Positions 28,434 to 49,351 of a DNA stretch of 64,000 nt are shown one piece after another. Below the pieces are notes generated by a model, which was given only the letters and a program-made list of their open reading frames with translations, searched no databases and was not told the origin of the DNA. Source of the DNA: a virus; the IMG/VR virus record IMGVR_UViG_3300009180_000022. One strand, written 5' to 3'. A program made the position numbers and the translations under genes. Within the stretch, counting starts at the first letter, position 1. Each line of letters opens with the position of its first letter.

Positions 28434-29006
28434 ATGAGTGATAACCACTATGTTGACAATAAGAAGCTATTAGAATCGATAACAGAATATAGAAATTTAG
28501 TTATTGAGTCTAAAACAAACGGTACCGTTAAGCCAAGGATACCTGACTATATCGGCAGGTGTATGTTGCTTATTGCCCAGAGATTATCACATAAGCCTAA
28601 CTTCATTAATTACTCATACCGTGAGGAGATGATTAGTGATGGTATAGAGAACTGTATTAGTTATATCGATAACTTTGATCCTTCCAAGTCAAACAATCCA
28701 TTTGCGTACTTTACACAGATTATATATTTTGCATTCCTTCGAAGAATTCAGAAAGAAAAGAAGCAGTTGTATGTAAAGCATAAGATGCTTGAAAACTCAT
28801 TGTTAATGAATACACTTATTTCCCAAGGTGAGCACGATGATGGAGAATTTACTCCAGCCTACATTGATATGGAAAATGAGAATATGAGTGACTTCATTAA
28901 CAATTTCGAGGAAGGGCTTGATAAGAAGAAAAAGCTTCGTAAGAAAGGCTTAGAAAAGTTTCTCGAGGAAGATATAGTCGCTGATATAGAGGAAGATGAA
29001 CAATGA
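28434..29006 (+). CDS. gp55: Late transcription sigma factor
   Basis: HYVDNK, PNFINYSYREEMISDGIENC, NPFAYFTQIIYFAFLRRIQKEK. Confidence 0.95.
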   Translation: MSDNHYVDNKKLLESITEYRNLVIESKTNGTVKPRIPDYIGRCMLLIAQRLSHKPNFINYSYREEMISDGIENCISYIDNFDPSKSNNPFAYFTQIIYFAFLRRIQKEKKQLYVKHKMLENSLLMNTLISQGEHDDGEFTPAYIDMENENMSDFINNFEEGLDKKKKLRKKGLEKFLEEDIVADIEEDEQ

Positions 29007-30067
29007 AGGTTGCAATTCTTGGTGACACCCATTTCGGAGCGCGCGGTGATAGTGCCCACTTTCATAAACTGTTTAAAAGATTTTACGATGAGGTCTTTTT
29101 TCCCTACCTAAAAGCAAACAGTATAGAGTATGTAATTCAACTAGGTGATGTTTTTGATAGACGTAAATACATTAACTATCAAACGTTGAGTAGTGCAAGG
29201 GAGTATTTCTTTGAGCCGTTAAATAGAGACTTTAAAAGCTGGCTGCTTGTTGGTAATCATGATACCTACTACAAGAACACCAACGAAGTTAATTCACTCG
29301 ACCTGTTATTACAGCAATATGAAAATATTCATCAAGTGCATTCGGCATGTGAGCTTGGACTTGAAGGTACATCCATTCTATTAGTACCCTGGATTGCACC
29401 TGATAACCAGATTGAAATACTTAACGATATGCAAACGTCACGCTCCCAGATATGTATGGGTCACTTTGAGATAAGTGGATTTGAGATGCATAAGGGCGCT
29501 GTATGTGATACAGGGCTTAACCGCGATGTGTTTGATAAGTTTGATCTAGTTATATCAGGTCACTTTCACACTAGGAGTATCCGTAATAACATCACATACA
29601 CAGGCACTCCCTATCAAATGACCTGGGCAGACTTTGATGATCCAAAAGGATTTCACATATTAGACACTAACACCAGGGAGATGGAGTTTATACCTAACCC
29701 TAATGTTATGTTCCATAAGGTATGGTATGATGACTTGAACAAAAGCATGACTGACGTTATTGTAGATGACTACACCCTGTATAAAGACTCAATCGTAAAA
29801 GTAATTATTAAAAATAAAACTAATCCTTATTGGTTTGATTTGTTTATCGAGCGTTTAGAGAAGTCAGGCCTATTAGATCTACAGGTCGTAGAAGATCACC
29901 TTAACCTTAACTTAGAAGATGATTCTGATATAGTTAATGAGGCAGAAGATACACTTACTATTCTTAATAAGTTTGTTGATCAGCTGGAACTCAAAGTTGA
30001 TAAACTAAAACTGGAAAGCCTACTACGTAACCTATACAATGAAGCGTTATCAATGGAGATTGCGTGA
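29003..30067 (+). CDS. gp47: Recombination nuclease (Mre11-like)
   Basis: GDTHFG, LGDVFDRR, GNHD, SGHFH metallophosphoesterase motifs. Confidence 0.95.
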   Translation: MKVAILGDTHFGARGDSAHFHKLFKRFYDEVFFPYLKANSIEYVIQLGDVFDRRKYINYQTLSSAREYFFEPLNRDFKSWLLVGNHDTYYKNTNEVNSLDLLLQQYENIHQVHSACELGLEGTSILLVPWIAPDNQIEILNDMQTSRSQICMGHFEISGFEMHKGAVCDTGLNRDVFDKFDLVISGHFHTRSIRNNITYTGTPYQMTWADFDDPKGFHILDTNTREMEFIPNPNVMFHKVWYDDLNKSMTDVIVDDYTLYKDSIVKVIIKNKTNPYWFDLFIERLEKSGLLDLQVVEDHLNLNLEDDSDIVNEAEDTLTILNKFVDQLELKVDKLKLESLLRNLYNEALSMEIA

Positions 30068-31779
30068 TATTTTTTAAAACTATAAGATGGAAAAACTTTC
30101 TTAGTACTGGCAACACATTTACTGAGATTGACTTTACAAAACATAAGTCAACACTTATTATTGGTGAGAACGGCGCCGGTAAATCTACCCTACTGGATGC
30201 GTTGTGCTTTGCGCTCTACGGTAAGCCGTTTAGAAAGATTAATAAGCCTCAGTTGGTTAACTCCATTAATGGTAAGGCACTTGAGGTAGAAGTTGAATTT
30301 AGTATTGGTAAAAGAGAATATAAAGTAAGGCGTGGTATAAAGCCTGCTATCTTTGAAATCTATCAAGATGGCAAGGTAATTAACCAGGATGCTGAATCGC
30401 GAGACTATCAGGAGATGTTTGAGCGTAGCATTATTAAGCTAAGCCATAAATCGTTCTCTCAGATCGTCATCCTCGGTAGTGCAGCGTTTGTACCATTCAT
30501 GCAGTTGTCTGCAATGAACCGCAGAGAAGTCATTGAGGACTTACTGGATATACAGATATTCTCTACTATGAACACCCTACTCAAGGGCAAACTATCAACC
30601 AACAGGGATAACGCTATTAGTGCCGACTTCAATACAAAGAGTACTGGTGAGAAGATTGAACTGTATAAGAAGCATATTGAGTCATTAAAGCAGAACAATG
30701 AAGAGTTAGTCAATCAGAAAAAGGTAAAGGTTACCGAGCTTTCTACCAGCATTGAAAATACAAATAAAACGATTGAATTACTGCAAACTGAAATAGAGGG
30801 GTTGTCAAGTAGTATTAGTGATCAAGACAAAGTACGATCAAGGCTGGAAAAAATCCGAGATATATCAAGACAGGTTGACCTTCGGTTAGAGAAACTACGC
30901 AAAGAGACGCAATTCTTCACATCGCATGATGACTGCCCAACCTGCCGTCAAGGAATTGCACATGATCACAAGTCTTCTATTATTGAGAAAAGCAATAGTC
31001 AAATTACTGAGGTTGAAGCAGGTAAACAAAAAATCACAGAAGAACTGGATAGTATTAATACCAGACTTACAGACATCTCAAGTGTATCCACTACTATTTC
31101 TACTAAGAATAGAGAAGTGTCAGATTTACTAATACAGTGCCGTACATGGGCATCGTTCATTGAAGATATAAAGAAGGAGATAGAGGCGCTAAACACCTCT
31201 AATAAGCAAATAGAGTCTAATAATGAAGAGCTGAAAGAGTTGAAAGATCAACTTAAGACCTTGATTAATCAGAAGGAAACACTTATACTTGAGAAACAAG
31301 TGCTAGATGTTGCCAATACTCTACTTAAAGATTCAGGTATAAAGACAAAGATCATTAAGCAGTATGTTCCTATTATGAATAAATTAGTTAACAAGTATCT
31401 TGCATCGATGGATTTTTTTGTTAACTTTGAATTAAACGAGTCGTTTGAAGAAACAATCAAATCAAGGTTTAGGGATGCATTTAGCTATGAGTCGTTTAGT
31501 GAAGGTGAAAAGTCACGTATCGATTTAGCGTTGTTATTTACATGGCGTGCAGTAGCTAAGTTACGTAATAGTGCATCTACTAACTTGCTTATCTTGGATG
31601 AGGTGTTTGATAGCTCAATGGACGTGCAAGGGAGTGATGAACTGATGAAGATATTGCAAACCCTGGCTGGTGATACAAACGTATTTGTTATTAGTCATAA
31701 GACTGATCAGCTGGTAGATAAGTTTAATAATGTAATTAGATTTGAAAAACACAAGAACTTTTCAAGAATGTGTAATTAA
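30064..31779 (+). CDS. gp46: Recombination ATPase (Rad50-like)
   Basis: GENGAGKST, zinc hook CPTC, FSEGEK signature, LILDEVFD. Confidence 0.96.
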   Translation: MIFFKTIRWKNFLSTGNTFTEIDFTKHKSTLIIGENGAGKSTLLDALCFALYGKPFRKINKPQLVNSINGKALEVEVEFSIGKREYKVRRGIKPAIFEIYQDGKVINQDAESRDYQEMFERSIIKLSHKSFSQIVILGSAAFVPFMQLSAMNRREVIEDLLDIQIFSTMNTLLKGKLSTNRDNAISADFNTKSTGEKIELYKKHIESLKQNNEELVNQKKVKVTELSTSIENTNKTIELLQTEIEGLSSSISDQDKVRSRLEKIRDISRQVDLRLEKLRKETQFFTSHDDCPTCRQGIAHDHKSSIIEKSNSQITEVEAGKQKITEELDSINTRLTDISSVSTTISTKNREVSDLLIQCRTWASFIEDIKKEIEALNTSNKQIESNNEELKELKDQLKTLINQKETLILEKQVLDVANTLLKDSGIKTKIIKQYVPIMNKLVNKYLASMDFFVNFELNESFEETIKSRFRDAFSYESFSEGEKSRIDLALLFTWRAVAKLRNSASTNLLILDEVFDSSMDVQGSDELMKILQTLAGDTNVFVISHKTDQLVDKFNNVIRFEKHKNFSRMCN

Positions 31780-31791
31780 TAAAGGATTAAT

Positions 31792-32022
31792 ATGGCGACA
31801 TTTTTATCGGAATTTGTTGATGGTGGGCCTACATGTAGTAGAGATGATTGCATGATTCAAGATCAAGGTGGAACCTCTACTATGGCATACTTCCCACCCA
31901 TCTATAACAACAACAATGTTAATATCAATCCTGATATGAACACTCAAACCTATAACAGAAGATGCCTTGCATGTGGTAAGGCCTGGACGGAGACATGGCA
32001 AAATGGTTCTAAAATTAGTTGA
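31792..32022 (+). CDS. Hypothetical Cys-containing protein
   Basis: AAGGA RBS; C-x4-C and C-x2-C pairs. Confidence 0.55.
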   Translation: MATFLSEFVDGGPTCSRDDCMIQDQGGTSTMAYFPPIYNNNNVNINPDMNTQTYNRRCLACGKAWTETWQNGSKIS

Positions 32023-32521
32023 TCCTTCTAGTGCAATTCTTAGTGAAAAAGTTCCTACTTTTGACTTTAAGAACCCACCCGTTAACTCTATGGAACTAGC
32101 AAGAGACTTGCTAGAAACTCTTATTGATAGAAAGTGTATGGGGCTATCAGCTAATGAATGCGGTCTCCCTTATCGTGTGAGTGTATTTCGTACAGAGGAT
32201 CCACTTGTTATGTTTAATCCTCGCATCATTGATGAAACTACTGAACACATTATGCTTGAAGAAACCTGTGCATCAAACACAAACATGATTGTCAAGATCA
32301 AAAGACCAAAGATCGTTAAGGTTCGCTATCAAGACGCAACTGGTGAGTTTCATACAGAGAAGTTTATTGGCATAACAGCACGTGCGATCTTACACGAGCT
32401 TGACCATCTCAACGGAATCAACTATACTAGACGTGCGCACCCGGTACATCTATCGCGTGCACAAAACAAAAAGAAACATCTCGATAGACAAGTAGCACGT
32501 GAATTAAAGCTAGCTATATAA
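32003..32521 (+). CDS. def: Peptide deformylase-like protein (divergent motifs)
   Basis: GLSANECG, FNPRII, EETCAS, HELDHLNG correspond to the three PDF motifs. Confidence 0.85.
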   Translation: MVLKLVDPSSAILSEKVPTFDFKNPPVNSMELARDLLETLIDRKCMGLSANECGLPYRVSVFRTEDPLVMFNPRIIDETTEHIMLEETCASNTNMIVKIKRPKIVKVRYQDATGEFHTEKFIGITARAILHELDHLNGINYTRRAHPVHLSRAQNKKKHLDRQVARELKLAI

Positions 32522-32572: not shown

Positions 32573-32749
32573 ATGTTTAAATTCAAAGAGGCTTTGACGC
32601 CCGATCCAACCCTGCATCGTAACATCAGCTTTGCCAAAAGCGCACTACGAATCTTTGCAGGTATCTTCCTTGCCATTGGTATTTACTCTATCGCAGGCCT
32701 TCTTGTGATCGCTGCTGAGGTGCTTGGAGTAGTAGAGGAGCTCGTTTAA
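32573..32749 (+). CDS. Small membrane protein (58 aa, absent from ORF track)
   Basis: TAGGAG RBS; MFKFKEALTPDPTLHRNISFAKSALRIFAGIFLAIGIYSIAGLLVIAAEVLGVVEELV; stop overlaps queE start. Confidence 0.7.
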   Translation: MFKFKEALTPDPTLHRNISFAKSALRIFAGIFLAIGIYSIAGLLVIAAEVLGVVEELV

Positions 32750-33600
32750 TGAGTCGCCTTAAGGTTTCCGAGCTATTTTATTCTATCCAGGGTGAGGGTA
32801 GATATATGGGAGTGCCAAGTGTATTCCTCCGTACATTTGGCTGTAATTTCACCTGTGACGGCTTTAATATGCCTCCTGGTGAAAAGAGCAATGAACGCAA
32901 TGTCATTGCAAATAATGCTGGTGAAATTAAAGTATACAAAGAACTACCTTTAGTATCAACAGGATGTGATTCATATGCGTCGTGGGATGTTAGGTTTAAG
33001 CATCTAAGTCCGATGCTTTCTATTGATGCCGTAGTTGATGGCATATTAGACATTCTTCCTCATAATGAATGGAAGGACGAACATCTAGTAATTACAGGTG
33101 GTGAGCCTTTACTAGGATGGCAACGTGCATATCCTGACTTGCTGTCTCATTCAAGAATGGATAACTTAAAAGAACTTACATTTGAGACTAATGGTACACA
33201 ACCTCTATCTGATGAGTTATATGAGTTTCTTAGTGAATGGACATTTGCACGGGTAGGTTATGATAACCTTACATTCTCGGTATCACCAAAGCTGTCGGCT
33301 TCTGGAGAAAGCTGGGATGATGCAATTAAACCAGAGATTGTAAGTAAGTATTCTGCTGTTGGTTATACCTATCTTAAATTTGTAATAAGCAACCTAGATC
33401 ACCTTATCGAGGCAGAGACTGCAGTAGAGGCATACCGTGATCACGGATTTGATGGACCAGTATACTTGATGCCTGTTGGTGGCACTAGTGAGGTATACAA
33501 TATGAATAACAGGCAAGTTGCCGAATACTCTATGGTTAAGGGTTGGAGATATAGCGATCGACTGCAAGTGCCGCTTTTTAAGAACGAATGGGGAACCTAA
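32749..33600 (+). CDS. queE: 7-carboxy-7-deazaguanine synthase (radical SAM)
   Basis: ELFYSIQGEG, VFLRTFGC, ITGGEPL, FETNGT, SVSPKL; adjacent queD/folE. Confidence 0.92.
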   Translation: MSRLKVSELFYSIQGEGRYMGVPSVFLRTFGCNFTCDGFNMPPGEKSNERNVIANNAGEIKVYKELPLVSTGCDSYASWDVRFKHLSPMLSIDAVVDGILDILPHNEWKDEHLVITGGEPLLGWQRAYPDLLSHSRMDNLKELTFETNGTQPLSDELYEFLSEWTFARVGYDNLTFSVSPKLSASGESWDDAIKPEIVSKYSAVGYTYLKFVISNLDHLIEAETAVEAYRDHGFDGPVYLMPVGGTSEVYNMNNRQVAEYSMVKGWRYSDRLQVPLFKNEWGT

Positions 33601-34079
33601 TGGCAAAGTTTATTTCAACAAAAACATACAATCAAATTGGACCAGTAGCATACAGGCAATGGCGCGCCGATAGTCACTGTAACCTTATCCATGGTTACGC
33701 GTTATCGTTTCACTTTGAGTTTGAATGTGATACATTAGATGCACGTAACTGGTGCATGGACTTTGGAGGATTAAAGCCTCTCAAGCAAAATCTAGAAGAT
33801 TGGTTCGATCATACATTGCTAGTTGCACAAGATGACCCAATGCGTGAGCACTTGCTTGCACTTGGTAAGTTAAAGCTGGCAAAGATTACAGAGGTCGAAA
33901 AGACTGGATGTGAAGGTATTTCTGATTTCTTGTATGAGTATATCAACACTATCTTCTTACCTCAGTATGGTAAGACAGAGGCCGAACGCATTTGGTGCTG
34001 CAAAGTACAAGTACGTGAGACGGATGCAAATATGGCCATGCGTGTTGGTCATCGTGAAGATAATGAATTTGTAGGATAA
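33600..34079 (+). CDS. queD: 6-carboxytetrahydropterin synthase
   Basis: C-x3-HGY, MDFG.LK, FDHT, V.ET T-fold motifs. Confidence 0.9.
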   Translation: MAKFISTKTYNQIGPVAYRQWRADSHCNLIHGYALSFHFEFECDTLDARNWCMDFGGLKPLKQNLEDWFDHTLLVAQDDPMREHLLALGKLKLAKITEVEKTGCEGISDFLYEYINTIFLPQYGKTEAERIWCCKVQVRETDANMAMRVGHREDNEFVG

Positions 34080-34081
34080 TT

Positions 34082-34777
34082 ATGACCGAGCGATATTTTT
34101 CTGATGTTATTCGTGAGAGGATGAATAAGGATGGTAAACGTTATTTTGCATGTGATAATATTTCTGAATATCTTGATGATCATGGACGAGATTTTCTCAT
34201 CACCGAACTGACTGAAAAGTTCAATGGAGTACTTGAGTCACTCCTGATCGATACAACGAATGATCCGAACAGTCAAGGTACAGGCAAGCGTCTGGCTAAG
34301 ATGTATGTTAATGAGATTATGTCTGGGCGTTATTATCCTGAACCAGCCTCTACTGCCTTCCCTAACGAAGGGAGTGAACGGTATACAGGTATGTTAGTTG
34401 TTCGTGCAGAACTTAAGTCAATGTGTAGTCATCATCACCAACCAGTTCGAGGTATTGCATACATCGGTATCATTCCTGGTAATAAGGTAATTGGACTTTC
34501 TAAGTATGCACGGGTTGCGCAATGGCATGCCCGCCGTGGGACACTACAGGAAGAATTATGCACCCATATTGCCAATTCAATTATGAATTCAACCGAGTCA
34601 CCTGATGTTGCTGTTTACATTGCTGCGCGTCATGGGTGCTGTGAAAATCGTGGATTGAACGCCCATTCGTCACTGACTCAAACAACCGTATTGCATGGCC
34701 AATTCCATCAAGCAGATGTAAAGAAAGAGTTCTTCGACAACATTACGCTACAGCAATCATACAATGAGAAAATTTAA
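34082..34777 (+). CDS. folE: GTP cyclohydrolase I
   Basis: SMCSHHHQP, IGLSKYAR, QEE, HGCC..RG. Confidence 0.95.
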   Translation: MTERYFSDVIRERMNKDGKRYFACDNISEYLDDHGRDFLITELTEKFNGVLESLLIDTTNDPNSQGTGKRLAKMYVNEIMSGRYYPEPASTAFPNEGSERYTGMLVVRAELKSMCSHHHQPVRGIAYIGIIPGNKVIGLSKYARVAQWHARRGTLQEELCTHIANSIMNSTESPDVAVYIAARHGCCENRGLNAHSSLTQTTVLHGQFHQADVKKEFFDNITLQQSYNEKI

Positions 34778-34780
34778 CGC

Positions 34781-34809
34781 TTGCATTAATTAACGGAGTC
34801 AGTTATAAT
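34781..34809 (+). promoter_or_regulatory. Sigma70-like early promoter inside the deazaguanine cluster
   Basis: TTGCAT-TAATTA...-TATAAT with 17-bp spacer; same TTAATTA core as the repeats at 49-55 kb. Confidence 0.7.
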
Positions 34810-34838
34810 TAACTATCTCTAACTTAATAGGTGTTATT

Positions 34839-35096
34839 ATGACTCAAGCAACTTCAAAGCCTCGTGTTAAGTCTGACGGTATCGGTGAAGATACTATGAA
34901 GACTTTATATGAGGTATTTAATACAGCAAATACTGATGATTATAAGTTGATGTGTTTAGAAGTGATTGGATGCTCGAATGCTAAACCAGCTACCAAGCAA
35001 AGGTTTAATGATCTTATTACTCAAAGCAATAGCAAGGCTACTATGCTGACCCGGGTTACTAATTTTTTCTTAGCAGGTGAAGGAAAAGGTGTATGA
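34839..35096 (+). CDS. Hypothetical protein
   Basis: 85-aa ORF behind promoter with AGGTG RBS. Confidence 0.6.
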   Translation: MTQATSKPRVKSDGIGEDTMKTLYEVFNTANTDDYKLMCLEVIGCSNAKPATKQRFNDLITQSNSKATMLTRVTNFFLAGEGKGV

Positions 35097-35506
35097 GCGA
35101 GATTAACGGTAAGATGTATTTGGCGCGTTTCACGAATAGGGAGACGCGAGAGATAGAGTTCTATAAGTTCGGTCATACTCATTCGTATGATGCAATGGAT
35201 CGATTTACATACGCCCCTGCGCAATACGAAAAGTGGAATATTAAGATTATGAAAACGGTCTACGGGCCGTTAGAACAGATGAAGGGCATTGAAGAGACCT
35301 TTAAAGCATTGTATCCAAAGAATCTATGGATCGATGAAAAGGTATCCGGTGTTACTGAAATTGTAAAGCTTGAGCAGCCTGCAATTGATCGTATAATTGG
35401 ATTGATGACTCAACTTAATGGTGTGTACTGGCGTCAACGTGAGCGCGAGAAAGCACAAGGTATTATTGACTATTTAAAGGTATTAGATGAAGAAGATCGC
35501 CCATGA
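35093..35506 (+). CDS. Hypothetical protein, possible GIY-YIG/T5orf172-like nuclease
   Basis: MYLARF...FYKFGHT...RF...EE.F...G.TE pattern. Confidence 0.4.
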   Translation: MSEINGKMYLARFTNRETREIEFYKFGHTHSYDAMDRFTYAPAQYEKWNIKIMKTVYGPLEQMKGIEETFKALYPKNLWIDEKVSGVTEIVKLEQPAIDRIIGLMTQLNGVYWRQREREKAQGIIDYLKVLDEEDRP

Positions 35507-36275
35507 AGCCCCTATTGGTATTTTTAGTCGTATACAGGAAGTAACCGATTATGATTATGCTCTAGTACATTTGTTTGAAGAGCGTGTGGACTATTGGGAA
35601 AAGTTTGTACGGGCTAAGAAGATGGGGCGTGAGATTATTCTTGATAACTCTATTTTTGAATTAGGAGAGGCATTTGAGAAGGATAAGTTCTGTCATTGGG
35701 TAGAGAAACTCCTTCCCACCTGGTATGTTATTCCTGATGCGCTTGAGGATGCTGAGCGTACGGTTAAGAATGTAAAAGATTGGCAGCATTTTGCTGGTTG
35801 TAAATCGATTGGTGTAGTGCAAGGCAAGACCTACGAAGAAGTGAAATGGTGTTATCAAGAGATCGAACCTCTAGTTGATAAAGTGGCTATCTCATTTGAC
35901 TATCATTTCTTTATTGATATTGACCTCAATGGGTTTTTGCCCACGAAGTATCATCACTTTATGTACGGGCGTGATGCGATGATTCATCGCCTCCTTTCTG
36001 ACGGGGTTATTAATGAGAATAAACCTCATCATCTACTTGGGTGTGGGTTGCCTCAGGAGTTTGAAAGTTATAGGGAATTAAATTGGATTGAAAGTATTGA
36101 TACATCTAACCCTGTAGTTGCAGCGATTAAAGGAATGACCTATAATGGACGCAAAGGCCTTGAAGATAAACCATCACAAAAGCTATTCACTATGCTGGAT
36201 AGTAAGCTTAGTTCCTACGAATTACAGCTGGTACTGTATAACATCGAGTGTTTTAGGGCAATTGTAAATGGCTAA
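35487..36275 (+). CDS. dpdA: TGT/DpdA-like deazaguanine transglycosylase (DpdA3-like)
   Basis: IILDNSIFE, IPD, GVVQG, HHLLG, SIDTS TGT-barrel motifs; embedded in que cluster. Confidence 0.75.
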   Translation: MKKIAHEAPIGIFSRIQEVTDYDYALVHLFEERVDYWEKFVRAKKMGREIILDNSIFELGEAFEKDKFCHWVEKLLPTWYVIPDALEDAERTVKNVKDWQHFAGCKSIGVVQGKTYEEVKWCYQEIEPLVDKVAISFDYHFFIDIDLNGFLPTKYHHFMYGRDAMIHRLLSDGVINENKPHHLLGCGLPQEFESYRELNWIESIDTSNPVVAAIKGMTYNGRKGLEDKPSQKLFTMLDSKLSSYELQLVLYNIECFRAIVNG

Positions 36276-36807
36276 AAAGTGGATTGCGTTGTATAGTCAG
36301 ACTGGGTCTGAGATTGCAGCTTTGTCTAAGGCGATTGATCGTAAGCCAGATATTCATCTGACAAATAACGTTGTGTTTACGGCTAATACTATTGTTAGTG
36401 GTACTATACTGAGGGCAAAGCATTCATGGATAGTTTCATACCTTGAAAATCAGGTAATATACGATCCAAAAGATACCATCATTACACTTCATGGATACTT
36501 ACGCATACTTCCAGTAAGTTTGTGCACCAAGTATACCATCTATAATGGGCATCCTGGAGCTATTGATCTATACCCTGAGTTGAAAGGTAAAGATCCACAG
36601 GTTAGAACGTGGGAGAACAAAGAACGATATAAGTTCATCGGTAGTGTGGTACATAAGGTAGTACCGGAAGTGGATGCAGGAGAGATCATTAAAAGTGTTC
36701 ATCTTTCTAATACATCTCAATCGATTGATGATACATTCTCAATGCTTAGGATGTGTTCACTTAGTGCATGGACATTTGCAATGAAGGAAATAGGAATATG
36801 CGAATAG
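36268..36807 (+). CDS. PurN-like formyltransferase (DpdN-like)
   Basis: SQTGS, GYLRIL, YNGHPG...P..KG, VH.V...VDAGEI: N10-formyl-THF formyltransferase motifs. Confidence 0.82.
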   Translation: MAKKWIALYSQTGSEIAALSKAIDRKPDIHLTNNVVFTANTIVSGTILRAKHSWIVSYLENQVIYDPKDTIITLHGYLRILPVSLCTKYTIYNGHPGAIDLYPELKGKDPQVRTWENKERYKFIGSVVHKVVPEVDAGEIIKSVHLSNTSQSIDDTFSMLRMCSLSAWTFAMKEIGICE

Positions 36808-37337
36808 GAATAACTGGTGCGCAGTCGGTAGGCAAGACTACTTTGCTTAATGCGTTACGTTCGGAAGATATGTTTAAAGATCTCGTCATATGTGATGAGG
36901 TTACGCGTAGGGTTAAGGGTTATGGTTTGCCAATTAATGAGGCTGGTAATGATATAACACAACGGCTTATAATGAACGAGCATGTGGTCAATGTATTTTT
37001 GTATGACAATATGATTACCGATCGTACAGTGCTAGACGGATTAGTTTATAGCAGCTATTTGCTCAAAAATCGTAAAGTTAGTATTGATACATTCAGGTAT
37101 GTGTATGATGTATACACTAAAGTAACACCCTATTATGATTATATTTTTTATATTGAGCCTGAGTTTGATATAGAAAATGACGGTACGCGTAGTGTGGATG
37201 TAGAGTTTAGGAATGAAATAGCTAGTCTGTTTGAGAGTTTAATATACCAGCATAAGATGGATGTTATTAGGATTGGTGGTTCAGTACGTAACCGCGTTAA
37301 TCAAATTATTGATATTATAGAAAAGGATAAAGAATGA
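36798..37337 (+). CDS. P-loop nucleotide kinase (NadR/AAA_28 or dNMP-kinase-like)
   Basis: IGITGAQSVGKTT, TDRTVLD, DGTR lid. Confidence 0.8.
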   Translation: MRIGITGAQSVGKTTLLNALRSEDMFKDLVICDEVTRRVKGYGLPINEAGNDITQRLIMNEHVVNVFLYDNMITDRTVLDGLVYSSYLLKNRKVSIDTFRYVYDVYTKVTPYYDYIFYIEPEFDIENDGTRSVDVEFRNEIASLFESLIYQHKMDVIRIGGSVRNRVNQIIDIIEKDKE

Positions 37338-38248
37338 GCGAAATCGAAGATATTGCAAGCGTTCACCTAGGTAAGGCAGGTGATGGTACGGTAGTTAAAC
37401 CTTATATTACACCTGATGAAGTAGATCCAGGATTGCTGGTATCTATTCCACGGTATCTTAATCGTACTGCGTATGGTATTGAGGAAGATAATCTGCCGTT
37501 TGCTGGGTATGATGTGTGGAATGCATATGAGTTTTCTACGCTATTAAAGAATGGATTTCCAATTTCTGGGCTAGTAAAGTTTGCATATCCAGCTGATTCT
37601 CCAAATATTGTAGAGAGTAAATCGGTTAAGCTTTACCTCAACTCATATAACATGGCCAGTGTTATTGATAACTGGGAAGATGTTTATATACTCGAGGATA
37701 AGATTACCGCCGATCTCGAGAAAGCTGTCGGGGCCCAGGTAAATGTTAACATCTTCCAGGGTGATCTGGATACTATTAGGCCAGTTGCAGGTGATTTTAC
37801 ATTGCTTGAGTCATACTGTAACATTCCTAATATGGAATTTAACAGCTACGAAGAATCATCAGATATTCTAGAAGTAGTTCCAAGTATTGGTCGTTACGAG
37901 CGTTGGCGTTCGCACTCACTCCGCTCCAATTGCCGGGTAACAAATCAACCGGACTGGGGTGATGTGTATGTTCATATTAAGGGTGAGCTTAGCGTGACAC
38001 CAGAATCACTTTTGAAGTATATCATTTCTATGAGAAAAGAGAATCACTTCCACGAAGAGATTTGCGAGTGTATCTATACCAGGCTTAATGCATTGCTTGC
38101 ACCAGATGAGCTGCTAGTTACATGCTTGTATACTCGTCGTGGAGGTATTGATATTAATCCCGTTCGTAGTAGCAATCCTTTCCTGATGTATCGTTATACG
38201 CCAATCATTGACGTTACTCAACCTAGTACAAAGACTGCCCGTCAATGA
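37334..38248 (+). CDS. queF: NADPH-dependent preQ0 reductase, bimodular type
   Basis: WNAYEFS, VESKSVKLYLNS, SNCRVTNQPDWG, FHEE, YTRRGGIDINP. Confidence 0.93.
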   Translation: MSEIEDIASVHLGKAGDGTVVKPYITPDEVDPGLLVSIPRYLNRTAYGIEEDNLPFAGYDVWNAYEFSTLLKNGFPISGLVKFAYPADSPNIVESKSVKLYLNSYNMASVIDNWEDVYILEDKITADLEKAVGAQVNVNIFQGDLDTIRPVAGDFTLLESYCNIPNMEFNSYEESSDILEVVPSIGRYERWRSHSLRSNCRVTNQPDWGDVYVHIKGELSVTPESLLKYIISMRKENHFHEEICECIYTRLNALLAPDELLVTCLYTRRGGIDINPVRSSNPFLMYRYTPIIDVTQPSTKTARQ

Positions 38249-38451
38249 TTGATAAAAATGTAGAGGCCATTCGTCAGTCATTACTCGAACGAATGGAAAA
38301 AGGATATAAGAAATACGGCACTACTACCGAACGTGTCGATATTGACCTGATGGGATGGTTGCAGCATTTACAGGAAGAACTGATGGATGCTGCAGTATAT
38401 GTTGAAAGGATTAAAGATGAACTTAGAACAAGCGCTAGCAAAACTACCTGA
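38245..38451 (+). CDS. Small all-alpha protein, possible MazG-like NTP pyrophosphatase
   Basis: G.KKYG, HLQEELMDAAVY (EExxD). Confidence 0.5.
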   Translation: MIDKNVEAIRQSLLERMEKGYKKYGTTTERVDIDLMGWLQHLQEELMDAAVYVERIKDELRTSASKTT

Positions 38452-39178
38452 TACAGATGCAAATGTTGTATCGGTATTGTCTGGAGGTCTTGATTCAACT
38501 ATTCTAACGTACATCTTAGTTAAGAAGTATGGTAAGGACCGAGTATTTGCTTTGACTTATGATTATGGACAGAAGCAGAGGCGTGAAATTGATATGGCTC
38601 GTGCAACCTGCATGTACATTGAAGTTAAACATAAGGTACTTGACTTGAGTATACTGGGTGATATTGTTAAAGATGTGTCAGCTAACATCAAAGGCACTGC
38701 TGTTGAGATGCCATCCATTAAGGATGTGCTTGGTGACCCACAACCAAAGACGTATGTACCTTTCCGTAATATGATCCTTAATTCGTTAGCATTCTCATTT
38801 GCTGAGTCGAATAAAGCAAGTCATGTGTTTACTGGATTACAGGTTCACGATCAGTATGGGTATTGGGATACGTCTCAACGCTTTGTTGATAGTATGAATA
38901 ACGTTGCTTCTCAAAACAGATCACATAAGGTATCCCTTGAGGCTCCATTTTCCGAACTATCAAAGTATGATGAGATTTTAATTGCCCAAGAGATGGGGGG
39001 CGTTGAATTAGATCTCACCCTCACATGCTATAATCCTGATGTTGATGGTCGTAGTTGTGGTAAGTGCCCATCGTGTAGTGAGCGTATTGCTAACTTTGCG
39101 AAAGCTGGCATTAAGGATCCAATTCCGTATAATGTAGAGATACCCTGGGATAAACTACTTGTAATGAATAACGATTAA
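38417..39178 (+). CDS. queC: 7-cyano-7-deazaguanine synthase
   Basis: SGGLDS, YGQ, YVPFRN, TCY...CGKCPSC. Confidence 0.95.
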   Translation: MNLEQALAKLPDTDANVVSVLSGGLDSTILTYILVKKYGKDRVFALTYDYGQKQRREIDMARATCMYIEVKHKVLDLSILGDIVKDVSANIKGTAVEMPSIKDVLGDPQPKTYVPFRNMILNSLAFSFAESNKASHVFTGLQVHDQYGYWDTSQRFVDSMNNVASQNRSHKVSLEAPFSELSKYDEILIAQEMGGVELDLTLTCYNPDVDGRSCGKCPSCSERIANFAKAGIKDPIPYNVEIPWDKLLVMNND

Positions 39179-39179
39179 T

Positions 39180-39827
39180 ATGTGCGCTATAGTTGGAAGC
39201 TTTGATAAAGATAAACTTATAGAATTAATTGAGTTAAATAGCTATCGTGGTAGTCATTCATACTCAATCTCTATTTACTCCAGGGACATGCTATTCTCTG
39301 TTAAAAAGGAGATTGGTAAGATTAATTATAATGACATCTTCTTGATCGAAGGTCAGTATGGTATTGTTCATATTCAGGCACCTACTACCGAGGCAAAAGA
39401 TGAAGTAAATATCCATCCTGCTAGGTTCAGGCTGTCAGATCGTTACTATAAATGGCCGGCGTTATGGCATAATGGAATCATTAAGTCTTCTCATGTAAAA
39501 AAGATGCAGGTTAAATACGGTATCGATACTGATTGGGATACTGAACTACTACTTCGTGCTTATATTGAAGAAGGCGCCCGCGGGCTATCAGAAATAGATG
39601 GGTCGTTTAGTTGTCTATACTATGATAGGGCCTGTTTATTTCTTTTTAGAAACGATATCAGCCCTATGTTCTATGATAAAGATCTTAACATATCATCTAC
39701 AATGTTTAAAGAAAGTATATCGACCCCGGCTAATAGGATTCTTAAGTTGGATCTTCAATCTAGGGCGCTATATAATATAGGTGAGTTTAAAACGGTAGAG
39801 AATCCTTATTTCTTTGCTGATGAATAA
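39180..39827 (+). CDS. Class II (Ntn) glutamine amidotransferase, stand-alone
   Basis: N-terminal MCAIVG (Cys1), RG, H..APT, HP, HNGII, DTE. Confidence 0.85.
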   Translation: MCAIVGSFDKDKLIELIELNSYRGSHSYSISIYSRDMLFSVKKEIGKINYNDIFLIEGQYGIVHIQAPTTEAKDEVNIHPARFRLSDRYYKWPALWHNGIIKSSHVKKMQVKYGIDTDWDTELLLRAYIEEGARGLSEIDGSFSCLYYDRACLFLFRNDISPMFYDKDLNISSTMFKESISTPANRILKLDLQSRALYNIGEFKTVENPYFFADE

Positions 39828-39845
39828 TTTGGAGATGATTACATA

Positions 39846-40346
39846 ATGAAGCATATTCTAGGACCTAACTCTAGGTCGTCCCTTACTGCTATCCGAGATG
39901 GAGATAGCCAGCCTAATGCAGTTGATCTAAGAGTCGATAAGATTTTTAAGATTAAAGAAGAACTGTTTGAAATATCTAACGAACATAAGAAGCATAGAGG
40001 TATTGATTATGAAATCAAACTCGACCCTGAAGGATACTTTGTCCTCCACCCTGGTAGTTACGAAGTCGTTATGGAGAACGTTATTAGTGTGGGAGAACGC
40101 GAAGCAGGTTGGGTCATTACCCGCAGCACTCTTAATCGTAACGGTCTCTTCCTTACATCTGGTCTTTACGATAGCGGCTATAATGGTGTTATGGCCGGCG
40201 TCCTTCACGTTACAATTACTACTGCTAGGATTAAGAAAGGTACGCGAATAGGACAATACTTAAACTTCGATGCAGAGTCATTGAGTTTATATGATGGTGA
40301 TTACGGAATTAACAAAACCCACGATAAAAAATATAGAACGGAGTAA
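39846..40346 (+). CDS. dCTP deaminase/dUTPase-family protein
   Basis: QPNAVDLR, TRSTLNRNG, SGLYDSGYNG, RIGQ. Confidence 0.82.
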   Translation: MKHILGPNSRSSLTAIRDGDSQPNAVDLRVDKIFKIKEELFEISNEHKKHRGIDYEIKLDPEGYFVLHPGSYEVVMENVISVGEREAGWVITRSTLNRNGLFLTSGLYDSGYNGVMAGVLHVTITTARIKKGTRIGQYLNFDAESLSLYDGDYGINKTHDKKYRTE

Positions 40347-40349: not shown

Positions 40350-41201
40350 ATGAAAATTGAAGTTAAAATTGAAGACTTACAGAAGAAGAAACTATTTGTC
40401 GCCACGCCCATGTACGGTGGGCAGTGTGCAGGTATGTACGCCCGAAGCATGGCTGATCTATCGGCATTCTGTGCCAAGTATAACATCCCATTACAGTTAT
40501 ATTACCTTTTCAACGAGTCGTTGATTACTCGTGCACGTAACTATTGCTGTGATGAGTTTATGCGTTCAGATGCAACTCACCTTATGTTTATTGATAGTGA
40601 TATTGGATTTAATCCACAAGACGTTATTGCGTTAATGGCATTGATGACTGATGAGAGTGAGTATGATGTTATCGGTGGTCCATATCCTAAGAAGTGTATC
40701 TCCTGGGAAAAGATTAAGATGGCTGTTGATAAGGGTGTGGCCGATGAGGACCCAAATAACCTCGAGAAGTTCGTTGGTGATTATGTGTTTAATCCTAAAT
40801 CACAACAAAAAGAGATTCCACTAGGTGAACCAGTAGAAGTATTAGAGATTGGTACTGGCTTTATGATGGTTCGTAAGAATACATTTAACAAATATGCCGA
40901 AGCATACCCATACCAAAGCTACAAACCCGATCATGTACGTACTGAGCACTTCGATGGTAGTCGTGAGATTATGGCATACTTCGATTGCATTATTGATCCA
41001 GTAAGCAAGCGTTACCTGTCTGAGGATTATAACTTCTGCTATCATGTTCAAAAGATGGGATTGAAAGTATGGTTCTGCCCATGGATGCAACTACAGCACG
41101 TTGGTAGTTATATATTTGGCGGCAGCTTGGCAGACCTGGCAAGTATCGGTGCATCAGCAACAGCTGACCAAGGGCAACTTAATAAGAAGAAGGGTAAATA
41201 A
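40350..41201 (+). CDS. GT-A fold glycosyltransferase-like protein
   Basis: VATPMYGG, ESLITRARN, MFIDSD (DxD), GTGFMM, LSEDYNFC, HVG. Confidence 0.78.
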   Translation: MKIEVKIEDLQKKKLFVATPMYGGQCAGMYARSMADLSAFCAKYNIPLQLYYLFNESLITRARNYCCDEFMRSDATHLMFIDSDIGFNPQDVIALMALMTDESEYDVIGGPYPKKCISWEKIKMAVDKGVADEDPNNLEKFVGDYVFNPKSQQKEIPLGEPVEVLEIGTGFMMVRKNTFNKYAEAYPYQSYKPDHVRTEHFDGSREIMAYFDCIIDPVSKRYLSEDYNFCYHVQKMGLKVWFCPWMQLQHVGSYIFGGSLADLASIGASATADQGQLNKKKGK

Positions 41202-42103
41202 TGAGCGATATATTTTCGTATGATACTACGGCCGGTCTTAAAATTGAAGAGAACCCGCTTAAAGCACAATACCCCGATCAGACTGATAATGAGTATTGGA
41301 GCAAAGTACCTCAACTCTTTGAGCAAGAGTTTGAGGATAAAACTAAACTAGAGACGTTTAAATCTAATTGGATTGTCAACAGAGTACCATTGTACCTTTC
41401 AACATTCGGTCAGTTAGAAGAATCATATATTAAGGATACTCTCAGTCTTATTTTTAGACATGTACCTCCTTCAAGTCATGAGGATTTCTTAAGTCTTATG
41501 GTTGAGCCTCGTCGTGGACATACAGATAAATCTTATGCCGAAACTACTGTTTCATTCGATATTGACACTAATGGTAGTAAGCGAGTACTTAAAAATATTG
41601 GATATCTTCGAAGCATCCGCGTACATAATGTGCTTATGTTTGAATGTACTACTAGCAAGAAAATTAAAGATTATGATGTAATAGTAGAAATTGGTGGTGG
41701 TATAGGTGAGTTCGCTAAAATTGTTCGTGATACTGGTTTTGAAGGTGAGTATTATGGAGTAGATTTTCCTCCTATGTGCGAGATCAATCAATACTATAAT
41801 GAGTTTAACGAAAAGAACTTTTATGTGAATGATGCAATTGACCTACCTGACTTCGGTGATAAGAAAGTTCTTGTTATTGGTACATGGTCATTTAGTGAAG
41901 TACCTGTATTGTACAGGGAAGAAATTATTAGCAAGATTCCTGGATGTGATTGGCTTCTTACTATTCAAGCAAATGTGATGGGTATTGATAATCTGAATTA
42001 TTTCTGTAATGATTTTGGACCGCGCACTGGTAAGAGGAATCAAATCTATCATATTCAATTTCATCCATACCAAGGTGGTAACTTTTACTACTTTGTAACC
42101 TGA
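41201..42103 (+). CDS. SAM-dependent methyltransferase (sugar O-methyltransferase-like)
   Basis: VEIGGGIG motif I, acidic VD at end of strand 2, TWSFSE. Confidence 0.65.
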   Translation: MSDIFSYDTTAGLKIEENPLKAQYPDQTDNEYWSKVPQLFEQEFEDKTKLETFKSNWIVNRVPLYLSTFGQLEESYIKDTLSLIFRHVPPSSHEDFLSLMVEPRRGHTDKSYAETTVSFDIDTNGSKRVLKNIGYLRSIRVHNVLMFECTTSKKIKDYDVIVEIGGGIGEFAKIVRDTGFEGEYYGVDFPPMCEINQYYNEFNEKNFYVNDAIDLPDFGDKKVLVIGTWSFSEVPVLYREEIISKIPGCDWLLTIQANVMGIDNLNYFCNDFGPRTGKRNQIYHIQFHPYQGGNFYYFVT

Positions 42104-42119: not shown

Positions 42120-42779
42120 ATGAAACTTGAAAACACAACCATTCAGATCTTGAAAAGCTTTTCAACGATAAATCCATCCTTGATGTTTAAGGCCGGGAGT
42201 ACATTAAGTACTTGTACTCCTTTAAAGACAGTATTTGCCAAGGCAACTATCACCGAGCAGATTCCAAATAGCTTTGCTATCTTTGATCTGTCTAAGTTCC
42301 TCGGGGTGCTTAGTTTGTTCAATGCACCAGAGATCAATATTGGTGATCGTAGTATGGAAATATCAGGCGGGCAGCATAAGGTAAATTATACCTTTGCCGA
42401 TCCTAAACTCATCGTCACTCCTAATGACAAAGAGATTAAGATGCCTGATTGTGAGATCAAATTTAGATTGACCTCTGATGATCTGTCTAAGGTTATGAAA
42501 GCACTCGGTGTGCTACAACTACCAGAGATCGCAGTAACAGGTGATGGAGTTAATATGCACCTGGCTGCTATTGACTCGAAGAATCCCTCTAGTGATACGT
42601 ATAAGATTCAACTAGGGAACACCTTGCTTGTCTATAAGATGATTTTCAAATCAGAAAACATTAAAATTATGGCTGGCGATTATGATGTTGAGATCTCTTC
42701 CCAAGGCGTTGCCTACTTCAAGGGTACTAATATTGAGTATTGGATTGCTACAGAGGCATCAAGTACATTTGAAAAGTGA
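42120..42779 (+). CDS. gp45: Sliding clamp
   Basis: LKSFSTINPS, FAIFDLSKFL, GDYDVEIS, YWIATE. Confidence 0.92.
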   Translation: MKLENTTIQILKSFSTINPSLMFKAGSTLSTCTPLKTVFAKATITEQIPNSFAIFDLSKFLGVLSLFNAPEINIGDRSMEISGGQHKVNYTFADPKLIVTPNDKEIKMPDCEIKFRLTSDDLSKVMKALGVLQLPEIAVTGDGVNMHLAAIDSKNPSSDTYKIQLGNTLLVYKMIFKSENIKIMAGDYDVEISSQGVAYFKGTNIEYWIATEASSTFEK

Positions 42780-42791: not shown

Positions 42792-43730
42792 ATGATGAAA
42801 CATTTCTTGTGGGTGGAGAAATACCGCCCTCAGACTATTGATGATGCTATTCTACCGGAGGACTTGAAGACTGTCTTTCAGAAGTTTGTGGATGATGGGT
42901 CAGTTCCTAACTTACTACTAACTGGCCGCGCCGGTATTGGTAAGACTACTGTTGCAAGAGCAATGCTTGAGCAACTTGAATGTGATTATATTGTCATCAA
43001 CGGCTCGATGAATGGTAATATCGATACACTTCGTAACGAGATAAGGACATTTGCCTCATCTGTATCTCTACAAGGCGGCCGTAAATATGTTATACTCGAC
43101 GAGGCCGACTACCTCAACCCAAATAGTACCCAGCCCGCTCTACGTAACTTTATGGAGGAGTTTAGTAGAAACTGTGGCTTCATTCTTACTTGTAATTTTA
43201 AGAATCGTATTATTGAACCTCTACATTCACGTTGTAGCGTTGTGGACTTTAAGGTCGAAGGTAAAGACAAATCAAAGATGGCTATGCAGTTCCTTCAAAG
43301 GACCTGTAACATCCTTGATAGCGAAGGTGTGGAGTACGATAAGAAGGTTCTAGCAGAGTTAATCATTAAGTATATACCTGATTGGAGGCGCGTTCTTAAT
43401 GAGCTTCAACGCTATAGTGCAGCAGGTAAAATTGATACTGGCATCCTGTCTAACTTTCATGATGATAATGTCAAGAACTTAATGAAGATGCTAAAGGAAA
43501 AGAACTTTACAGAGATGCGTAAATGGGTGGCTATAAATACTGATATGGATAATGCGGTGTTCTTTCGTAAGCTCTATGAGATTGCATCGGAATATGTTAC
43601 ACCAAATACCATTCCAGTATTAGTATTGAAGCTTGCTGACTATCAATACAAGGCTGCCTTTGTGGCTGATCATGAGATTAATACTGCTGCATGTCTTACC
43701 GAACTAATGGTTGATTGCGAATTCAAATAA
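42792..43730 (+). CDS. gp44: Clamp loader large subunit
   Basis: WVEKYRP, GRAGIGKTT, ILDEAD, HSRC. Confidence 0.96.
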   Translation: MMKHFLWVEKYRPQTIDDAILPEDLKTVFQKFVDDGSVPNLLLTGRAGIGKTTVARAMLEQLECDYIVINGSMNGNIDTLRNEIRTFASSVSLQGGRKYVILDEADYLNPNSTQPALRNFMEEFSRNCGFILTCNFKNRIIEPLHSRCSVVDFKVEGKDKSKMAMQFLQRTCNILDSEGVEYDKKVLAELIIKYIPDWRRVLNELQRYSAAGKIDTGILSNFHDDNVKNLMKMLKEKNFTEMRKWVAINTDMDNAVFFRKLYEIASEYVTPNTIPVLVLKLADYQYKAAFVADHEINTAACLTELMVDCEFK

Positions 43731-43737: not shown

Positions 43738-44031
43738 ATGAATAACATTATCATCGGCATCCTAACCTGGATTAAGAATGACTACAAGTCTTACCCTCTC
43801 CGCTTTACTATTGAGCTCATTGCTTGGGCTATTAGTATATGTTGTTCTATCACGATGGCACTCACCGTTCCAACCCCTCCCCTCCTGGCTCTTTATCCTA
43901 TCTGGATTTTGGGCTGTGGTATGTACGCTTGGGCTGCTTATAGTCGTAAATCTTTTGGTATGTTGTTTAATTACACCTTACTTGTAACCATAGACTCAAT
44001 CGGTCTTATTAGGATGCTTATAAACTTATGA
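43738..44031 (+). CDS. Small three-helix membrane protein
   Basis: Three hydrophobic segments. Confidence 0.6.
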   Translation: MNNIIIGILTWIKNDYKSYPLRFTIELIAWAISICCSITMALTVPTPPLLALYPIWILGCGMYAWAAYSRKSFGMLFNYTLLVTIDSIGLIRMLINL

Positions 44032-48257: not shown

Positions 48258-48312
48258 GCCTGGAAAGGTTTTAGAACACGTGTCTACGCCAAAGCCTCCT
48301 GGTTGCTTAATG

Positions 48313-49306: not shown

Positions 49307-49351
49307 TTACGCCGTTTGACTATAATTGGATATCAACAGAGGAAACAACGA

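Follow-up and report, generated by a model that had tools for sequence, protein, structure and literature searches.

A predicted DpdA3/DpdN-type 7-deazaguanine DNA-modification cluster with a conserved kinase-like gene in an uncultured T4-like phage

Complete replacement of deoxyguanosine (dG) in DNA by a 7-deazaguanine derivative has been shown only for Campylobacter phage CP220, phage phiST of Cellulophaga, and Flavobacterium phage immuto_2-6A (hereafter immuto), whose transglycosylases were defined as the subfamily DpdA3 (Cui et al., 2023; PMC10516641). In immuto the substitute is fdPreQ1, the formylated form of dPreQ1, which is the deoxynucleoside of 7-aminomethyl-7-deazaguanine (preQ1). 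Its DNA contains 345,000 fdPreQ1 per 10^6 nucleotides (nt), with no dG and no dPreQ1, and resists restriction enzymes with G in their sites (PMC10516641). The published model is a post-replicative exchange of the base on DNA, on the argument that each of the modified phages has a DpdA (PMC10516641). Here a candidate for the same type of system is described from IMG/VR virus record IMGVR_UViG_3300009180_000022, of which a stretch of 64,000 nt (the window) was analysed. Judging from its gene content and homologies, the 7-deazaguanine cluster at 32749-40346 is probably (at roughly 0.72) a complete DpdA3/DpdN-type DNA-modification system of an uncultured T4-like phage. The first-pass annotation of this DNA had read the cluster as predicting a deazaguanine-substituted genome, on the background that a set of DpdA3, QueF, and DpdN yields fdPreQ1 in a Flavobacterium phage, which is correct (PMC10516641).

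The window covers a T4-like replication and recombination region, with the cluster placed between gp46 and gp45. The open reading frames (ORFs) of the cluster form a gap-free array, all on the + strand and abutting or overlapping, in the order QueE, QueD, FolE, orf85, orf137, DpdA-like, PurN-like formyltransferase, P-loop kinase-like, QueF, orf68, QueC, an amidotransferase with a Cys1 nucleophile, and a protein of the dCTP deaminase (DCD)/dUTPase type. All seven genes listed in the first-pass annotation (queE, queD, folE, queC, queF, and the TGT/DpdA-like and PurN-like genes, where TGT stands for tRNA-guanine transglycosylase) are present there on the + strand and intact. The whole array, from gp47 to gp44, recurs with its order unchanged in contigs whose DpdA is 96% identical; records ERR3761234 and ERZ27263703 contain near-identical contigs. 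Since gene order is kept both in these close relatives and in more distant ones, the arrangement is a conserved one and not due to chance. Consensus scans gave no support for internal transcription units: shuffled sequence had more promoter-like sites, and those resembling terminators occurred at chance level.

In the proposed pathway, FolE, QueD, and QueE would convert GTP to 7-carboxy-7-deazaguanine. QueC would then make 7-cyano-7-deazaguanine (preQ0), with ammonia from glutamine probably delivered via the adjacent Cys1 amidotransferase, and QueF would reduce preQ0 to preQ1. DpdA3, as a minimal TGT-fold transglycosylase, would swap guanine for the 7-deazaguanine, and DpdN would formylate the 7-aminomethyl nitrogen with the help of a folate donor (10-formyl-tetrahydrofolate, if it works as PurN does).

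The DpdA-like gene (35487-36275, + strand) encodes a protein of 262 amino acids (aa) with a compact TGT fold and no CxCxxC zinc motif. Its best match in a database of 50,697 phage records (tblastn) is the DpdA3 of immuto, at 52% identity (E 1e-77), and the DpdA3 of CP220 is matched at 37% identity (E 8e-41); 22 phage records were matched in all, none of them from a known DpdA1 or DpdA2 phage. A profile made from the protein and its relatives matches immuto (1e-122), CP220 (5e-69), and phiST (1.3e-14), with no match in phi-Grn1, a Vibrio phage related to VH7D and nt-1, which carry tested DpdA2 proteins. The protein has no Pfam, NCBIfam, or significant Protein Data Bank (PDB) sequence match: PF01702 is silent even at E 10, and the best TGT sequence in the PDB scores E 1.2. 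PF01702 likewise misses all three reference DpdA3 phages (immuto, CP220, and phiST), yet it matches 14 of 14 control genomes.

An AlphaFold (AF2) model built on an alignment of 36 homologs has a mean predicted local distance difference test score (pLDDT) of 95.1, and with it the top 50 Foldseek matches in the PDB are all TGTs, whether bacterial, eukaryotic, or archaeal/archaeosine (probability 1.0, query-normalised TM-score, TMq, 0.6-0.69). Two aspartates, D53 (in LDNS) and D205 (in DTSNP), are invariant in the 36 homologs, and could be the counterparts of the TGT catalytic D102-S103 and D280 regions, a correspondence read by eye from motif resemblance only. With its relation to the reference DpdA3s, a TGT-like fold with conserved Asp residues, and 7-deazaguanine synthesis genes encoded alongside, the protein is assigned by homology to DpdA3. 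Neither a PF01702 match nor the CxCxxC...H zinc motif of tRNA TGTs was found in it. Because PF01702 does not match and the profile finds the three DpdA3 reference phages and not phi-Grn1, the gene at 35487-36275 does not group with tRNA-acting TGTs, the one outcome for this gene that the first-pass annotation had named as speaking against its reading.

The next gene (36268-36807, + strand) encodes a member of the PurN superfamily (PF00551, 1.4e-5; TIGR00639 PurN, 1.4e-7), and is a predicted DpdN, that is, an N-formyltransferase that would act on the 7-aminomethyl group of preQ1 or dPreQ1. It is 38% identical over 97% of its length (E 9e-30) to immuto YP_010114479.1, the protein named DpdN by Cui et al. 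(PMC10516641), and only four records in the phage database are matched, all of them immuto. Among 32 homologs, N93-G-H95-P and D136 never vary, and a profile alignment with PDB chains 3kcq and 5cjj matches them to the catalytic NxHP and Asp motifs of PurN. Against the PurN equivalog model the protein scores 31 bits, far under the cut-off of 150. It thus sits within the YP_010114479.1 group of PF00551, has the PurN-type Asn-His-Asp, and is encoded together with a DpdA and the FolE-to-QueF enzymes. Its slot, between DpdA3 and the P-loop gene, is the same as in immuto.

Given that the window holds an orthologous set in the same central order as immuto, the measurements on immuto DNA lead to a prediction of fdPreQ1 for most or all G. 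The best-supported reading is that the phage DNA carries fdPreQ1 in this way, and the reading of a deazaguanine-substituted genome given in the first-pass annotation is borne out to the extent that homology allows, the closest phage proteins being immuto DpdA3 and DpdN in the same order. The sequence itself shows the identity of the genes, their intact catalytic motifs, the TGT fold, and the orthology and synteny with immuto; the nature of the product, its near-complete substitution for G, and its role against restriction are all carried over from the published immuto data. Several points weigh against this reading. The case for fdPreQ1 in the present phage is one of homology throughout, and identity to the immuto DpdN is just 38%. 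The activity of DpdN is described as "predicted" or "potential", immuto included (PMC10516641), and DpdA3 activity was not reconstituted in E. coli by Cui et al., who looked for plasmid modification (PMC10516641). The degree of replacement would be an extrapolation from the three characterised DpdA3 phages. Finally, the amidotransferase adjoining QueC could in principle open a competing branch to archaeosine (G+).

The gene between those for DpdN and QueF encodes a P-loop protein (36798-37337, + strand; PF13521, 4e-15) resembling nucleoside and nucleotide kinases of the AAA_28, NadR ribosylnicotinamide kinase (RNK), deoxynucleoside kinase (dNK), and thymidylate kinase (TMPK) types. Its ORF opens at 36768, and homologs begin at M11 (36798). 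In the PDB its profile matches the ribosylnicotinamide-kinase domain of NadR (2.8e-6), dNK (2.7e-5), deoxyguanosine kinase (5.6e-5), and thymidylate kinase (7.3e-5), while Foldseek places the AF2 model (pLDDT 95.1) best on deoxyadenosine/deoxycytidine kinases, TMPK, and NadR, with probability 1.0. Invariant residues are G7, G12, K13, R37, Q55, R76, D80, and R131, which include the P-loop, a DR motif, Gln55, and the LID arginine (Arg131); kinase fold, P-loop, a motif of the DR(Y/H) type, and LID arginine are thus all found in the protein, as in the kinase superfamily. The immuto homolog, 36% identical and in the same slot, is annotated "thymidylate kinase". In CP220 a homolog lies directly downstream of DpdA3 (33% identity, E 1e-26).

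Matches to the family in the phage database are confined to the Campylobacter and immuto phages that carry DpdA3, apart from distant homologs in Streptomyces phages. The latter were considered as members of the same system and set aside as distant paralogs (~26% identity, no deazaguanine context). No kinase was found in the QueC-bearing Escherichia, Mycobacterium, Pseudomonas, and Vibrio phages of that database, and the kinase profile had no match in phiST. One member of the family, P0310 (451 aa), has a C-terminal extension of 280 residues with an HxH...H...D pattern recalling metal-dependent amidohydrolases and no Pfam match in the extension.

A wider comparison was made in IMG/VR. The best 80 DpdA3 loci were taken, and the 69 with at least 2.5 kb downstream were counted: QueF is present in 69/69, DpdN in 68/69, and the kinase in 61/69. 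Starting instead from the kinase, DpdA3 is upstream in all 64 loci with room for it and QueF downstream in 70 of 71. Some contigs are in both sets, and close relatives are favoured, so the counts are not independent. DpdA3-(DpdN)-P-loop-QueF is a conserved module, in which the kinase is a near-obligate neighbour of DpdA3. Fusions link the kinase to tailoring and nucleotide enzymes. In L015 and L018 (related loci are numbered L), a DpdN+kinase fusion (P0281, L015:8001-9044) and a kinase+dUTPase fusion (P0255, L018:8001-8990) each have a DpdA3 gene directly upstream, on phage backbones of the PolB and DnaE types, and kinase+GNAT fusions (P0372, P0290, P0303) are found in L016 and L017. All of these fusions are within FolE/QueD/QueE/QueC/QueF clusters, on differing polymerase backbones. 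No DpdA3-kinase fusion was found among 150 representatives of the kinase family, and a predicted complex of DpdA3 with the kinase scored 0.00, which gives no support to an association and was counted neither for nor against one. The conserved kinase-like gene is outside what the published model explains; the word "kinase" is absent from the 2023 description (Cui et al.), and a literature search found no later paper on the mechanism of DpdA3.

The strongest rival to post-replicative exchange leaves the product as it is, with the same fdPreQ1 DNA, and moves its synthesis to the nucleotide pool, before replication. An enzyme of the dNTP pyrophosphatase type (the DCD/dUTPase-like protein in the window; dUTPase, HD, or MazG proteins elsewhere) would convert dGTP to dGMP, DpdA3 would act on deoxyguanosine, as nucleotide or nucleoside, and exchange its base, DpdN would formylate the new base, the kinase would phosphorylate the modified nucleoside or nucleotide, and the phage polymerase would incorporate the triphosphate. 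We hold this route to be somewhat less than an even bet. The known complete base replacements, by hydroxymethylcytosine (hmC), hydroxymethyluracil (hmU), and Z, are made before replication. The kinase itself is an argument, with its deoxynucleoside-kinase/TMPK/NadR-RNK fold and profile, its invariant P-loop, DR motif, Gln55, and Arg131, and its place beside DpdA3 not only in the window and immuto but also in CP220, which has 100% 2'-deoxy-7-amido-7-deazaguanosine (dADG) and no QueF. Its regular position downstream of DpdA3, its fusions to DpdN, dUTPase, and GNAT inside 7-deazaguanine clusters, and its occurrence with DpdA3 phages rather than with the QueC-bearing phages named above all fit. 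So do a MazG gene in the phiST cluster and an HD-P-loop gene beside the DpdA3 of CP220. The failure of DpdA3 to modify E. coli plasmids counts here in favour, as does the ADG nucleoside cited from the cytoplasm of CP220-infected cells (PMC10516641).

Other points count against it. The kinase is missing from 8 of the 69 DpdA3 loci and from phiST, and the DCD-like gene is absent from L002 and has a backbone position in a Rhizobium phage. The characterised TGT and DpdA enzymes all act on polynucleotides, and TGT-fold enzymes are not known to exchange bases on mononucleotides. The kinase could instead recycle released guanine to GTP together with a phosphoribosyltransferase (present in 24 related loci and in immuto), be an ATPase partner of DpdA3 like the bacterial DpdB, or serve NAD salvage supplying QueF. 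A kinase fold that is tightly linked to DpdA3, fused to acyltransferase or dUTPase, and absent from the partially modifying QueC phages is better accounted for if nucleosides or nucleotides are the substrate of at least one step. A view of the DpdA3 complete-replacement systems as not purely post-replicative, with a core of DpdA3 and a dedicated kinase, an optional formyl- or acetyltransferase, and often a dNTP pyrophosphatase-type gene nearby, is tentative, and we put it at a little under even odds.

The phosphoribosyltransferase gene is a small one, located between QueE and QueD in those 24 loci (L028-L032, L038, L040, L045, and others; L001:5843-6238) as well as in immuto, and it is not found in the window. 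Its product could serve to recycle the guanine that is set free, or to form a ribonucleotide of 7-deazaguanine.

A second alternative is that modification stops at dPreQ1 or is partial, with the formyltransferase-like gene serving an auxiliary role in purine or folate metabolism or acting on some other amine. PurN-like auxiliary genes do exist in cyanophages (phrog_9240), the activity of DpdN is only predicted, and the module can evidently work without an acyltransferase: DpdN is present in 42 of 64 kinase loci and GNAT in one, and the remaining 21 have DpdA3, kinase, and QueF with no acyltransferase. In relatives of the window, however, the gene lies between dpdA3 and the kinase gene in 68 of 69 cases, and in L015 it forms a fusion with the kinase. 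Its match to true PurN is weak (31 vs 150 bits), its sole relatives in the phage database are the immuto DpdN proteins, and immuto DNA has fdPreQ1 only, with zero dPreQ1 (PMC10516641). We regard this alternative as unlikely, and formylation by DpdN as the better account of the window.

Loci with other arrangements in the DpdN slot form recognisable groups. DpdA3, kinase, and QueF without a formyltransferase between them occur in a large subgroup including L142-L165 (for example L142:5193-7500), and such phages are predicted to carry unformylated dPreQ1, possibly in full replacement. In L016:8001-8999, L017:3719-4717, and L141:5534-6600 a GNAT acetyltransferase occupies the slot, either as a fusion with the kinase or as its neighbour, which suggests an undescribed N-acetyl-preQ1 DNA base.

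The route to preQ1 is encoded in full, with the motifs of its enzymes, and QueD, FolE, QueF, and QueC each score above their Pfam thresholds. QueE, the radical-SAM 7-carboxy-7-deazaguanine synthase (32749-33600, + strand), matches five NCBIfam QueE models at ~1e-13 in two pieces; an insert of 36 residues, placed after the second cluster cysteine and before the third, splits the match. The cysteines C32, C36, and C73 and the motifs GGE, ETNG, and SPK are kept in an alignment with QueE of immuto, phiST, and three metagenomic phages. QueD, the 6-carboxytetrahydropterin (CPH4) synthase (33588-34079, + strand; PF01242, 3.6e-15), probably has its true start at M5 (33600); its relatives are 159 aa long. 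FolE, GTP cyclohydrolase I (34082-34777, + strand; PF01227, 1.7e-37), has the motifs CSHHH and HGCC. QueF, an NADPH-dependent preQ0 reductase of the bimodular type whose product is preQ1 (37334-38248, + strand; QueF_N PF14819, 6.9e-31; QueF PF14489, 5e-18), has the QueF motif, E(S/L)K(S/A)hK(L/Y)(Y/F/W), as ESKSVKLY from residue 94 and its catalytic Cys200 within SNCRVTNQPDW. It matches TIGR03138 at 7.6e-71 (238.9 bits, short of the 293 set as the equivalog cut-off) and is 49% identical to immuto QueF. QueC, the preQ0 synthase (38387-39178, + strand; PF06508, 5.2e-53), probably starts at M11 (38417). It has SGGLDS and a C-terminal Cys4 cluster, and is 59-63% identical to QueC of Schizotequatrovirus-like Vibrio phages.

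QueC is followed, 1 nt after its end, by a stand-alone class-II glutamine amidotransferase of the Ntn, Cys1 type (Gat; 39180-39827, + strand; GATase_6, 5.7e-9), with the N-terminus MCAIVG. The homologs of Gat (34-42% identity) invariably have QueC directly before them; they come from 49 Vibrio phage records (nt-1, VH7D, and ValKK3 types, and KVP40-like ones too) and from Pseudomonas phage pf16. This pair raises a third alternative, in which Gat and QueC act like the fused Gat-QueC and convert preQ0 to the archaeosine base, so that the DNA would carry deoxyarchaeosine (dG+), alone or mixed with fdPreQ1. For phage 9g and for archaea, the fused form has been tied to the making of G+ (PMC10516641), and the closeness of Gat to queC and its Cys1 nucleophile are in keeping with such a role. 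In the window, by contrast with the fusion, where the GATase is N-terminal to QueC in one polypeptide, there are two ORFs in the order QueC then Gat. Phage phi-Grn1 carries QueF-QueC-Gat, also split, with a Gat 34% identical to that of the window (E 8e-36), and its DNA contained dPreQ1 and its methylated form mdPreQ1, with no dG+ (PMC10516641). This favours Gat as a glutaminase feeding ammonia and not as an enzyme diverting preQ0 to archaeosine. The G+ of nt-1 has been ascribed in the literature to ArcS2, and QueF and DpdN are intact and conserved beside Gat in at least 24 related loci. Archaeosine is therefore a distinctly poor candidate for the DNA base, less likely still than unformylated dPreQ1, and by analogy with phi-Grn1 Gat probably supplies QueC with ammonia from glutamine.

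That the cluster is instead a set of auxiliary metabolic genes boosting queuosine-tRNA synthesis in the host, with phage DNA unmodified, is very improbable, as its transglycosylase groups with DpdA3, without a PF01702 match and orthologous to proteins of fully modified phages, and a Pfam scan of the cluster ORFs found no QueA, QueG, or QueH.

Three small ORFs of the array are conserved in relatives. The first, orf85 (34839-35096, + strand), has no family match and is kept at this position. The second, orf137 (35093-35506, + strand), overlaps the start of dpdA3 and has no Pfam match. A language-model feature search in a protein atlas gave T5orf172 clusters at 0.94-0.95; taken as a lead only, this would make orf137 a T5orf172/GIY-YIG-like protein, which may be a nuclease or DNA-binding protein tied to the modification system. 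The third, orf68 (38245-38451, + strand), is a small phage protein lying between QueF and QueC in 41 related loci and matching only PHROG families without an assigned function. It was considered as a possible MazG-like protein, and this was not supported: there is no Pfam match, and its atlas neighbours are unnamed viral clusters.

The DCD-like gene at the end of the array (39846-40346, + strand; PF22769, 5.6e-13) belongs to the dCTP-deaminase/dUTPase superfamily and follows Gat in 46 related loci. It is missing from the relative L002, and a homolog in the Rhizobium T4-like phage RHph_I1_18 has the same backbone position before gp45, so that its membership of the deazaguanine module is uncertain. 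Beyond it are a protein with similarity to GT-A glycosyltransferases (40350-41201, + strand), 70% identical to a protein of Stenotrophomonas phage DLP_6, and a NanM-like, methyltransferase-like protein (41201-42103, + strand), with a TIGR04371 match (1.5e-9) within the pair. These two were considered as base-tailoring enzymes. Because homologs of the GT-A-like gene are also found in Sinorhizobium, Pelagibacter, and Synechococcus T4-like phages, the pair was treated as part of the backbone or accessory to it, outside the deazaguanine module.

To the left of the cluster are gp47 (29003-30067; Pfam) and a gp46-like Rad50/SbcC recombination nuclease subunit (30064-31779, + strand; Pfam AAA_23, SMC_N, and Rad50 zinc hook), the latter ~50% identical to its best cultured relatives in Stenotrophomonas phage DLP_6, Methylophilales phage Melnitz, and cyanomyophages. 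To the right are the gp45 sliding clamp (42120-42779, + strand; PF09116, 3.1e-13, and PF02916) and gp44 (42792-43730). Megablast of the 7.6-kb cluster region found zero matches among the 50,697 phage records, and hence no close cultured relative; the phage is of an uncultured T4-like lineage.

Some other features of the window may be mentioned. A peptide deformylase gene (31967-32521; PF01327, 2e-28) is located just 5' of the cluster, and Rhizobium phage RHph_I1_18 likewise has a deformylase immediately before QueD. Though it adjoins a cluster predicted to make a formamide, it probably counts among the usual auxiliary genes that marine T4-like phages carry. The relatives with 96% DpdA identity have an FkbM-type methyltransferase gene (PF05050) between gp46 and orf76 (L012:5612-6304), which is absent at 31779-31792 in the window; a separate FkbM-type gene is found at 44028-44603. 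The G+C fraction climbs from ~0.39 to 0.50-0.51 over 48000-56000, where there are many short ORFs. An RNA ligase (PF09414 and an OB-fold domain; 58437-59543) and a separate AAA_33 kinase-like gene (61671-62150) could be an RNA-repair pair.

The DpdA3 family is abundant. A collection of 5.8 billion proteins contained 4185 DpdA3-like and 2389 DpdN-like proteins, and IMG/VR at least 558 relatives of DpdA3. The fdPreQ1 system, so far confined to one cultured Flavobacterium phage genus, would now be placed in a T4-like lineage as well and would be common in environmental viromes. Genomes with fdPreQ1 should resist many restriction enzymes and probably also sequencing and cloning chemistries that read G, and may therefore be under-sampled. 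The kinase-centred module offers a handle on how a transglycosylase system reaches 100% replacement, and on whether it does so before or after replication. If the base is indeed made in the nucleotide pool, the route would be a guanine counterpart of those to hydroxymethylcytosine in T4 and to the Z base in S-2L, and DpdA3 would be the first TGT-fold enzyme acting on mononucleotides.

Compared with the described systems, the window is closest to immuto, which has the same enzyme set and the same central order, DpdA3-DpdN-P-loop "thymidylate kinase"-QueF, and which is the best database match for DpdA3 (52%), DpdN (38%), the P-loop protein (36%), and QueF (49%). The backbones differ, that of the window being T4-like (gp46, gp45, gp44), while the immuto stretch has a family-A polymerase and GroES/GroEL. 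QueC is paired in the window with a stand-alone Gat, whereas the immuto stretch examined is without QueC and holds the phosphoribosyltransferase instead, and the window has orf137, orf68, and the DCD-like gene in addition. The transglycosylases of CP220 (100% dADG) and phiST (100% 2'-deoxy-7-deazaguanosine, dDG) are of the same DpdA3 subfamily, but these pathways lack QueF and DpdN, stop at an earlier stage, and lead to different bases. CP220 shares the kinase-like gene downstream of DpdA3 and has an extra HD+P-loop gene immediately upstream; phiST has no kinase, and a MazG-like pyrophosphatase gene in its cluster instead.

The Schizotequatrovirus group of Vibrio phages (VH7D and nt-1, which were tested, and phi-Grn1 and phi-ST2, which were measured) is also T4-like, and its QueF-QueC-Gat segment is homologous to that of the window (QueC 59%, Gat 34%). 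Its transglycosylase, in contrast, is the published DpdA2, with no homolog of the window DpdA3 in phi-Grn1, and the group has no homolog of the P-loop kinase; preQ1 is methylated by DpdM, not formylated, and modification is at trace level, <0.1% of nucleotides (PMC10516641). With QueC nearest to Vibrio-phage proteins and DpdA3, DpdN, the kinase, and QueF nearest to immuto, the cluster is a mosaic. The tRNA TGTs have the same TIM-barrel fold but are longer, at ~370-390 aa against 262 aa, and have the CxCxxC...H zinc subdomain motif that the window DpdA3 lacks.

In T4, hydroxymethyl-dCTP is supplied by the gp56 dCTPase, the gp42 dCMP hydroxymethylase, and the gp1 dNMP kinase. The likeness to the window is one of functional analogy only: a T4-like phage there encodes, side by side, an enzyme of the dUTPase superfamily, one that would alter a base, and one with a nucleotide-kinase fold, and the chemistry and the families differ. 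What was already known is the fdPreQ1 system of DpdA3 and DpdN in immuto; what the window and its relatives add is a T4-like, mosaic member and a conserved module centred on the kinase.

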